This document shows, piece by piece, positions 23,783 through 33,628 of a stretch of DNA of 35,743 bases. Position numbers and translations under genes: made by a program. Source of the DNA: Thermoanaerobaculia bacterium (GTDB lineage: Bacteria > Acidobacteriota > Thermoanaerobaculia > Multivoradales > UBA5704); assembly GCA_036277235.1 (NCBI GenBank), contig DASUNJ010000528.1, forward strand, positions 1 through 35,743, written 5' to 3'. The notes below the pieces were generated by a model. It had not been told where the DNA came from and made no database searches. It saw only the letters and a program-made list of their open reading frames with translations. Position 1 is the stretch's first letter, and every line of letters starts with the position of its first letter.

Positions 23783-33628
<9,846 letters not shown>

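Follow-up and report, generated by a model that had tools for sequence, protein, structure and literature searches.

The ketosynthase (KS) encoded by gene g1 of the 35,743-nt stretch of DNA analysed here (hereafter, the window) carries serine in place of the catalytic cysteine, and we consider it probable, from sequence comparison, that this domain is a ClbI-type KS which works with a ClbH-A2-type, SAM-activating adenylation (A) domain to form a cyclopropane, both partners residing in a single polypeptide. Pfam resolves g1 into the order FAAL-ACP-C-A(SAM type)-T-KS(Ser)-AT-KR-ACP (Table 1). The Ser-KS is internal, lying after C-A-T and before AT-KR-ACP, as the original prediction had described it; that prediction had also read the serine (TCG, codon 1935), and had judged the domain unlikely to be an ordinary KS, all of which our analysis bears out.

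Table 1. Features of the window, with positions in the numbering of the whole stretch.
Feature	Position (nt)	Strand	Details	Basis
Gene g3	622..14364	minus	NRPS, 4580 aa, A-T-C-A-T-C-A-T-C-A-T-C-TE	Pfam and BLAST positions
Gene g2	14348..20680	minus	2110 aa, KS(Cys)-AT-ACP-C-A-T, next module; KS of the ordinary Cys/Thr type	
CBM9/DUF5916 protein gene	20688..23102	minus	804 aa, between g1 and g2	Pfam
Gene g1	23783..33628	minus	3281 aa, GTG start, frame intact	ORF list and translation
Last ACP of g1	23894-24121	minus	about aa 3170-3245	Pfam PP-binding
KR domain	24377..24976	minus	aa 2885-3084	Pfam KR
AT domain	25877..26767	minus	aa 2288-2584; motifs GHSLGE and HAFH	Pfam
KS domain	27062..28342	minus	aa 1763-2189, ClbI-like all-Ser clade	Pfam, PDB search, NJ tree
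Codon 1996, Phe	27641..27643	minus	ClbI Phe239 equivalent, second clade-specific residue	
Codon 1935, TCG, Ser	27824..27826	minus	nucleophile column (ClbI Ser178)	
T domain	28409..28594	minus	aa 1679-1740, predicted carrier of the SAM-derived residue	Pfam PP-binding
A domain	28682..30157	minus	aa 1158-1649, code ASGSLGGVCK, ClbH-A2 (SAM) type	GrsA positions
Low-complexity insert GVKDVKDGKDSKDTKDVLDPLSPLRPLGPLAP	29714..29809	minus	aa 1274-1305, inside the SAM-type A domain	
Condensation (C) domain	30218..31603	minus	aa 676-1137	Pfam PF00668, E 1e-88
First ACP of g1	31619-31861	minus	about aa 590-670	Pfam PP-binding
FAAL-type adenylating domain (fatty acyl-AMP ligase)	31934..33628	minus	aa 1-565	Pfam AMP-binding, AMP-dom_DIP2-like
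Hybrid histidine kinase/receiver protein	34945-35736	minus	C-terminal part	

On the plus strand, nt 27824-27826 read CGA, which gives the TCG (Ser) codon 1935 of g1 within GPTLTVQTASSTSLSAVHTA. When aligned to solved KS structures, Ser1935 lines up with the catalytic Cys (TVQTAS against AVDTAC of 7ZMA), with no nearby Cys occupying the nucleophile position in this alignment. The other catalytic residues are kept, namely His2071 (ECHGTAT) and the Lys and His2111 (SLKTNIGHL); the two His motifs had been recognised in the original prediction, as had the ordinary Cys of the second KS of the operon (g2, 20680..14348), which reads GPSHSVQCACSTSLVAVHTA with the usual VQCACSTSL. The serine is also present in sequence data from elsewhere. 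A contig from run X1 showed 0 differences over nt 27500-28150, and run X2, produced in another study, spans nt 27684-28081 with one difference, at nt 28016; these are independent soil metagenomes, and both carry the identical Ser codon 1935. Two further runs (X3 and X4) showed no listed change at this codon, but their alignments end close by, and they are not counted as read support. All 11 of the closest database homologues (66-78% identity; Thermoanaerobaculia and Myxococcaceae MAGs) carry Ser, and among the 120 best database homologues there are 16 with Ser and 104 with Cys.

We surveyed 185,579 species, each represented by a single genome, using an alignment of SAM-type A cores, i.e., of the domain type that lies directly upstream of the Ser-KS, as the query and the motifs [VI]VNGYGLTE and [SHY]ASF[VAL]GE[IVL][LFY]P. 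This returned 509 motif matches and 466 confirmed relatives, the best 80 of which were examined. Among these best 80 of 466, every locus in which a KS could be read in the 3 kb downstream (75/75) has Ser at the nucleophile, encoded by TCG in 41, TCC in 27, TCT in 4, and TCA in 3, and neither TGY nor AGY was ever seen at this codon in the 75. That all four TCN codons are in use indicates that Ser has been maintained for long, the codon drifting among synonyms while selection kept the residue. No evidence was found for an error of sequencing or assembly, or for a KS decaying into an inactive domain, and either has next to no probability here; the same codon in two independent runs, the TCN Ser across the readable loci, the unbroken frame of 3281 codons, and the retention of all other catalytic residues refute both, and error and decay are excluded. 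Ser1935 is thereby confirmed as real and conserved, neither a chance nor a private substitution.

The best single-domain match to the window KS among solved structures is ClbI of the colibactin pathway (8XJY/8XJU, E 4e-167), which reads TVQTSSSTSL. A search of E. coli genome DNA matched clbI, and the RefSeq ClbI of strain Nissle 1917 (L001) has Ser at residue 178; the sequence of 8XJU and 8XJY is that of native ClbI, and the Ser seen in the structures is therefore native. The primary work on ClbI Ser178 is reportedly that of Zha et al. 2017. We did note that structures 8XJU, 8XJY, and 8XJZ carry the ClbI sequence, though a 2023 review reports that none was available (PMC10491745).

In a neighbour-joining (NJ) tree of 123 KSs, a distance method, the window KS lies in the NRPS-accepting group (VQTA[C/S]STSL) and clusters with ClbI, in an all-Ser clade of 16 members (the window KS, 14 Ser homologues, and ClbI) recovered in 99/100 bootstraps. 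Apart from the nucleophile, a single column, ClbI residue 239 (window Phe1996), fully splits this clade from the Cys-KSs: it is Phe in 16/16 clade members, and among the Cys-KSs Thr in 90/105 and Phe in 0/105. This Phe239 signature was derived in the present analysis and not taken from the literature. The first His and the Lys are kept in 16/16 members of the clade, and the second His in 15/16. Overall identity is a poor guide to this kinship, as the window KS shares 58.5% with ClbI and 58.1% with the Cys-KS of g2; the near-equal values do not separate ClbI from ordinary KSs and are not used as an argument. The link to ClbI rests instead on where the KS falls in the tree, on the two residues that mark the clade, and on the A domain that accompanies it. 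Scanned against NCBIfam, the KS-AT and C-A-T segments, the DUF5916 protein, and a small ORF gave generic PKS/NRPS models only, all below cut-offs, and none specific to ClbI or ClbH.

Two more Ser KSs (P0019 and P0060), of a lineage found in metagenomes, were placed apart from the clade, among the Cys-KSs of the NJ tree. This lineage, represented by locus L005, shares with the window KS the Ser nucleophile and the position of an NRPS-accepting KS after A-T, but it keeps Thr at the ClbI-239 position, and the context of the L005 KS (nt 796-2547), followed downstream by genes for a GHMP kinase, an LCM-type methyltransferase, and a hydrolase, is unlike the window cassette. From its placement, it apparently represents a second, independent Cys-to-Ser substitution and may reflect a different use of a Ser-KS.

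The strongest single result concerns the partner of the Ser-KS. We took the ten specificity positions of each A domain against GrsA, with the control recovering DAWTIAAICK. For the A domain that immediately precedes the Ser-KS, the code is ASGSLGGVCK, identical in 9/10 positions to ClbH-A2 of E. coli Nissle (ASGSLGGICK); the codes of the remaining five A domains in the window are ordinary and begin with D. Asp235, which binds the alpha-amino group, is near-universal in A domains. Both the window domain (Ala at this position) and ClbH-A2 are without it, both carry NGYGLTE and not NxYGPTE, and in the window domain TSIAHASFLGE replaces the FDxS motif. Identity of the window C-A-T to ClbH is only ~34%, scarcely more than the 31-32% found for its remaining NRPS modules, which weighs against the reading. 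By the code match, the A domain of g1 is inferred to load SAM, and the module has both halves of the ClbH-A2/ClbI device. The window A domain additionally contains a low-complexity insert (nt 29714-29809), composed of GVKDVKDGKDSKDTKDV followed by LDPLSPLRPLGPLAP and sitting between the N-terminal core motifs; in alignment, it has no counterpart in ClbH-A2, and what L002 and L003 have at that place is much shorter and free of repeats.

Across genomes, this SAM-type A domain and the Ser-KS are strictly paired. The same A code lies upstream of the Ser-KS in a syntenic orthologous cluster (L002) and in an 11.3 Mb Chloroflexia MAG (L003), and a further case found from the A side (P0271) likewise pairs the code with a Ser KS. 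In a Corallococcus isolate (L006), a Firmicutes MAG (L007), and a second Chloroflexia locus (L008, also a MAG), the Ser/Phe KS directly follows a SAM-type A-T, and the other KSs of these three loci are Cys/Thr. Among the best 80 of the 466 survey relatives, the A code ASGS[LM]G[GS][VI]CK is present in 80/80 loci and Phe239 in 73/73 readable loci, alongside the invariant Ser described above; the remaining KSs that could be read there, 41 in all, have Cys codons without exception. Five of the 80 were without a KS, four being cut by contig ends and one (L088) having no KS match within 3 kb.

Ordinary A-T-KS junctions behave in the opposite manner, with 68/68 combining another code with Cys. Of these junctions, 29 came from 150 unrelated giant synthetases and 39 from a second homologue search. 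The 150 were returned by an exhaustive representative search with the A-T-KS segment, whose ranking by summed score brought up giant multi-module synthetases and yielded no specific relatives, and they serve as a background set only. The ASGSLGGVCK/ICK code was absent from ~800 A domains of the background proteins. L005 and L004 were both left out of the pairing test: the upstream A domain of L005 is cut by a contig end, and at L004, which has a stand-alone Ser-KS gene, no SAM-type A domain was found in the DNA retrieved. If the cyclopropane reading is true, the A code ASGSLGG[VI]CK together with KS Ser/Phe239 would be a simple and apparently error-free rule for mining aminocyclopropane units.

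The pairing bears directly on how the serine is to be read. Cys-to-Ser KS domains (KS-S) are found in the loading modules of polyene synthases (NysA, PimS0, AmphA), where the His residues are kept and the N-terminal domain primes the chain. Drawing on this precedent, the original prediction had suggested that the Ser-KS might act as a decarboxylating primer, starting a new chain and breaking colinearity, and the Ser nucleophile and both retained His do agree with that suggestion. The two types are set apart by position: the polyene KS-S are N-terminal without an upstream carrier protein, whereas the window KS is internal, starting at aa 1763, 22 residues after the T domain, and belongs to the NRPS-accepting group in which it clusters with ClbI. 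Furthermore, coupling to one particular upstream A domain argues that the KS acts on the upstream chain; a KS that ignored this chain would have no use for such coupling. We regard priming of this kind as very improbable. The polyene KS-S were the wrong analogue, and a decarboxylative primer that breaks colinearity finds no support given the strict coupling to a ClbH-A2-type A domain. Other altered KSs show a non-canonical role as well, including KSQ, with Gln at the nucleophile, and KS0, typically without a catalytic His; the window KS differs from these in having Ser together with both His.

In colibactin biosynthesis, the ClbH carrier domain is loaded with SAM and N-acylated, and ClbI cyclises the tethered acyl-SAM to the cyclopropane (PMC10491745). 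The conserved KS Cys is replaced by Ser178 in ClbI, the S178A variant is inactive, and whether Ser178 serves as a base or a nucleophile was unsettled in the 2023 review (PMC10491745). Genetic work indicated that clbC, clbH, and clbI are all needed for the aminocyclopropane-containing intermediate, with the PKS modules ClbC and ClbI adding one malonate unit each (PMC5490422).

The chemical steps that we propose for g1 are all drawn from homology to this system. The FAAL, judging by domain content, would load a fatty acid onto the first ACP, and the A domain, judging by its specificity code, would load SAM onto the T domain. The C domain, which is inferred to N-acylate the T-bound amino acid, would then yield N-acyl-SAM-S-T. 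The KS, via Ser1935 and by homology to ClbI, would promote ring closure, in which the alpha-carbon attacks the gamma-carbon and methylthioadenosine is lost, leaving an N-acyl-1-aminocyclopropane-1-carbonyl thioester. The same KS, in which His-His-Lys is kept, would condense the cyclopropane unit with malonate loaded by the AT, presumably via an oxyester acyl-enzyme; by the established motif rule (GHSLGE and HAFH), the AT of g1 is predicted to be of the malonyl type. Elongation by the Ser-KS is plausible given the intact His-His-Lys, AT, KR, and ACP and the malonate extension at the ClbC and ClbI modules. The KR would then reduce the beta-keto group, and the chain would pass to the Cys-KS of g2, colinearity being kept under this model.

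A serine KS might also do no more than elongate through an oxyester acyl-enzyme, with any cyclopropane formation or further tailoring occurring elsewhere or with the A domain loading an ordinary or pre-formed amino acid (free ACC or methionine), and the intact His-His-Lys and AT-KR-ACP are what such a role would call for. We nonetheless find this unlikely, as it leaves unexplained why Ser and Phe239 occur solely after an ASGSLGG[VI]CK A domain and never after the 68 others, and because in ClbI the Ser is tied to the cyclisation of tethered SAM (PMC10491745). The original prediction had offered condensation through an oxyester as its other suggestion; this is plausible as one half of the function, in line with the malonate added by the ClbI module (PMC5490422), but the cyclopropane role (PMC10491745) was missed.

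The A code and its pairing with the Ser-KS would hold just as well if SAM, once loaded by the A domain, were converted by the Ser-KS into a product other than the ClbI ring. SAM leaving-group chemistry permits several intramolecular displacements (PMC10491745 covers SAM as an aminocarboxypropyl donor), with N-acyl azetidine-2-carboxylate, vinylglycine, or a homoserine-lactone/oxazine type by methylthioadenosine displacement as possible other products, and the window module has a KR where ClbI is without one. We hold such an outcome to be quite improbable: the equivalents of Ser178 and Phe239 are invariant across the clade, including ClbI, which suggests one shared reaction, and no residue difference was found that points to a different outcome. 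Cyclopropane formation of the ClbI type remains our preferred reading.

Compared with colibactin ClbI (KS-AT-ACP) and ClbH (A1-C-A2-T), the window module shares the Ser nucleophile with His-His-Lys, Phe239, the KS clade, a near-identical A code without Asp235 and with NGYGLTE, and the order of C-A-T followed by KS-AT. The differences lie around this core. In the window, the parts are fused in one polypeptide, whereas ClbH and ClbI are encoded apart, an arrangement shared by the 33 split loci among the best 80 of 466; the window begins with FAAL-ACP lipo-initiation, whereas the colibactin chain is received from ClbC; the ClbH-A1 domain has no equivalent in the window cassette; and the host is probably a soil Acidobacteriota-like bacterium here and E. 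coli for ClbH/ClbI. No clb accessory genes were found in the window. Since the window module has a KR and ClbI does not, the fate of the cyclopropane unit downstream would differ from that in colibactin: the KR would remove the beta-keto group used for the colibactin unsaturated imine, which adjoins the cyclopropane there, so we do not ascribe colibactin-like reactivity to the product.

The cassette is widespread. FAAL, C, A, KS, AT, and KR occur at the spacing seen in the window in most of the best 80 of 466 loci, with a homologous FAAL upstream in 71/80. Among the same best 80, 43 loci, mostly from Acidobacteriota, have A-T and KS in one fused protein, and 33, from Myxococcota and Chloroflexota, have them in separate genes. 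Closest to the window are the genomes of an uncultured Holophagales MAG (L009; identity of 93% for the A core and 97.7% for the KS segment) and of a Thermoanaerobaculia MAG (L010), from which a soil Acidobacteriota source is probable for the window. The cassette is carried by many species of Acidobacteriota, Myxococcota, and Chloroflexota, including cultured Myxococcota (Corallococcus, Archangium, Pyxidicoccus, and Myxococcus strains), among them Corallococcus coralloides KYC2213 (L046) and Archangium gephyra SDU49 (L033).

In literature searches of incomplete coverage, we found no paper on the FAAL-ACP-C-A-T-KS-AT-KR cassette or on ClbH/ClbI-like pairs outside the clb island, and colibactin was the only case found, again with incomplete coverage, of SAM as an NRPS building block and of a Ser-KS as cyclopropane-forming catalyst. 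The Ser-KS as such is already known from ClbI; what is new is the fused, lipo-initiated, KR-containing form and its presence in new phyla. We give even chances to the broader proposal that the cassette starts a whole family of N-acyl-aminocyclopropane lipopeptide-polyketides, of which colibactin ClbH/ClbI would be a split enterobacterial offshoot and not a one-off. If the cyclopropane reading is true, this two-domain device would be common in soil bacteria, and the cultured myxobacterial carriers would bring the products and the mechanism of the Ser within practical reach. With T and KS fused, the cassette may lend itself to study more readily than ClbH/ClbI, which act in trans. In annotation, such a KS should not be labelled as inactive or as a loading-type KS-S.

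The genes surrounding g1 showed several further features. The AT of g2 (about nt 18100-18200, minus strand) reads VAFAGHS at the place of the malonyl-type HAFH motif of the g1 AT, and its choice of extender unit may therefore be unusual. The NRPS encoded by g3 opens with A-T without a C domain and ends with C directly before TE, and g2 ends with C-A-T, such that the hand-over between the two is not formally colinear. The first and third A domains of g3 share a common code, DLFNNALTYK. Upstream of g1 (nt 33629-35743), ~1.3 kb is without a convincing gene; a possible 166-aa ORF in this region (nt 34421-34921, plus strand) gave no family match.

The CBM9/DUF5916 gene between g1 and g2 has a GC content of 0.64-0.68, and the synthases 0.72-0.75. 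It accompanies the cassette in 28/80 loci (best 80 of 466) as well as in L002, and lies beside the stand-alone Ser-KS gene in L004; as a guess, its product could have a role in export or at the outer membrane.

The stand-alone Ser-KS-AT gene of L004 is the closest environmental relative of ClbI, and a gene with a GyrI-like domain (nt 5486-5992) lies near it. Among GyrI-like proteins are hydrolases by which cyclopropane warheads are detoxified, and this gene could serve in self-resistance. In L008, the cassette is directly followed (nt 16983-20410) by genes for a 3-hydroxyacyl-CoA dehydrogenase, an 82-aa protein, an acyl-CoA dehydrogenase, and a HAD hydrolase, a gene set resembling the ClbD/E/F-type set for unusual extender units.
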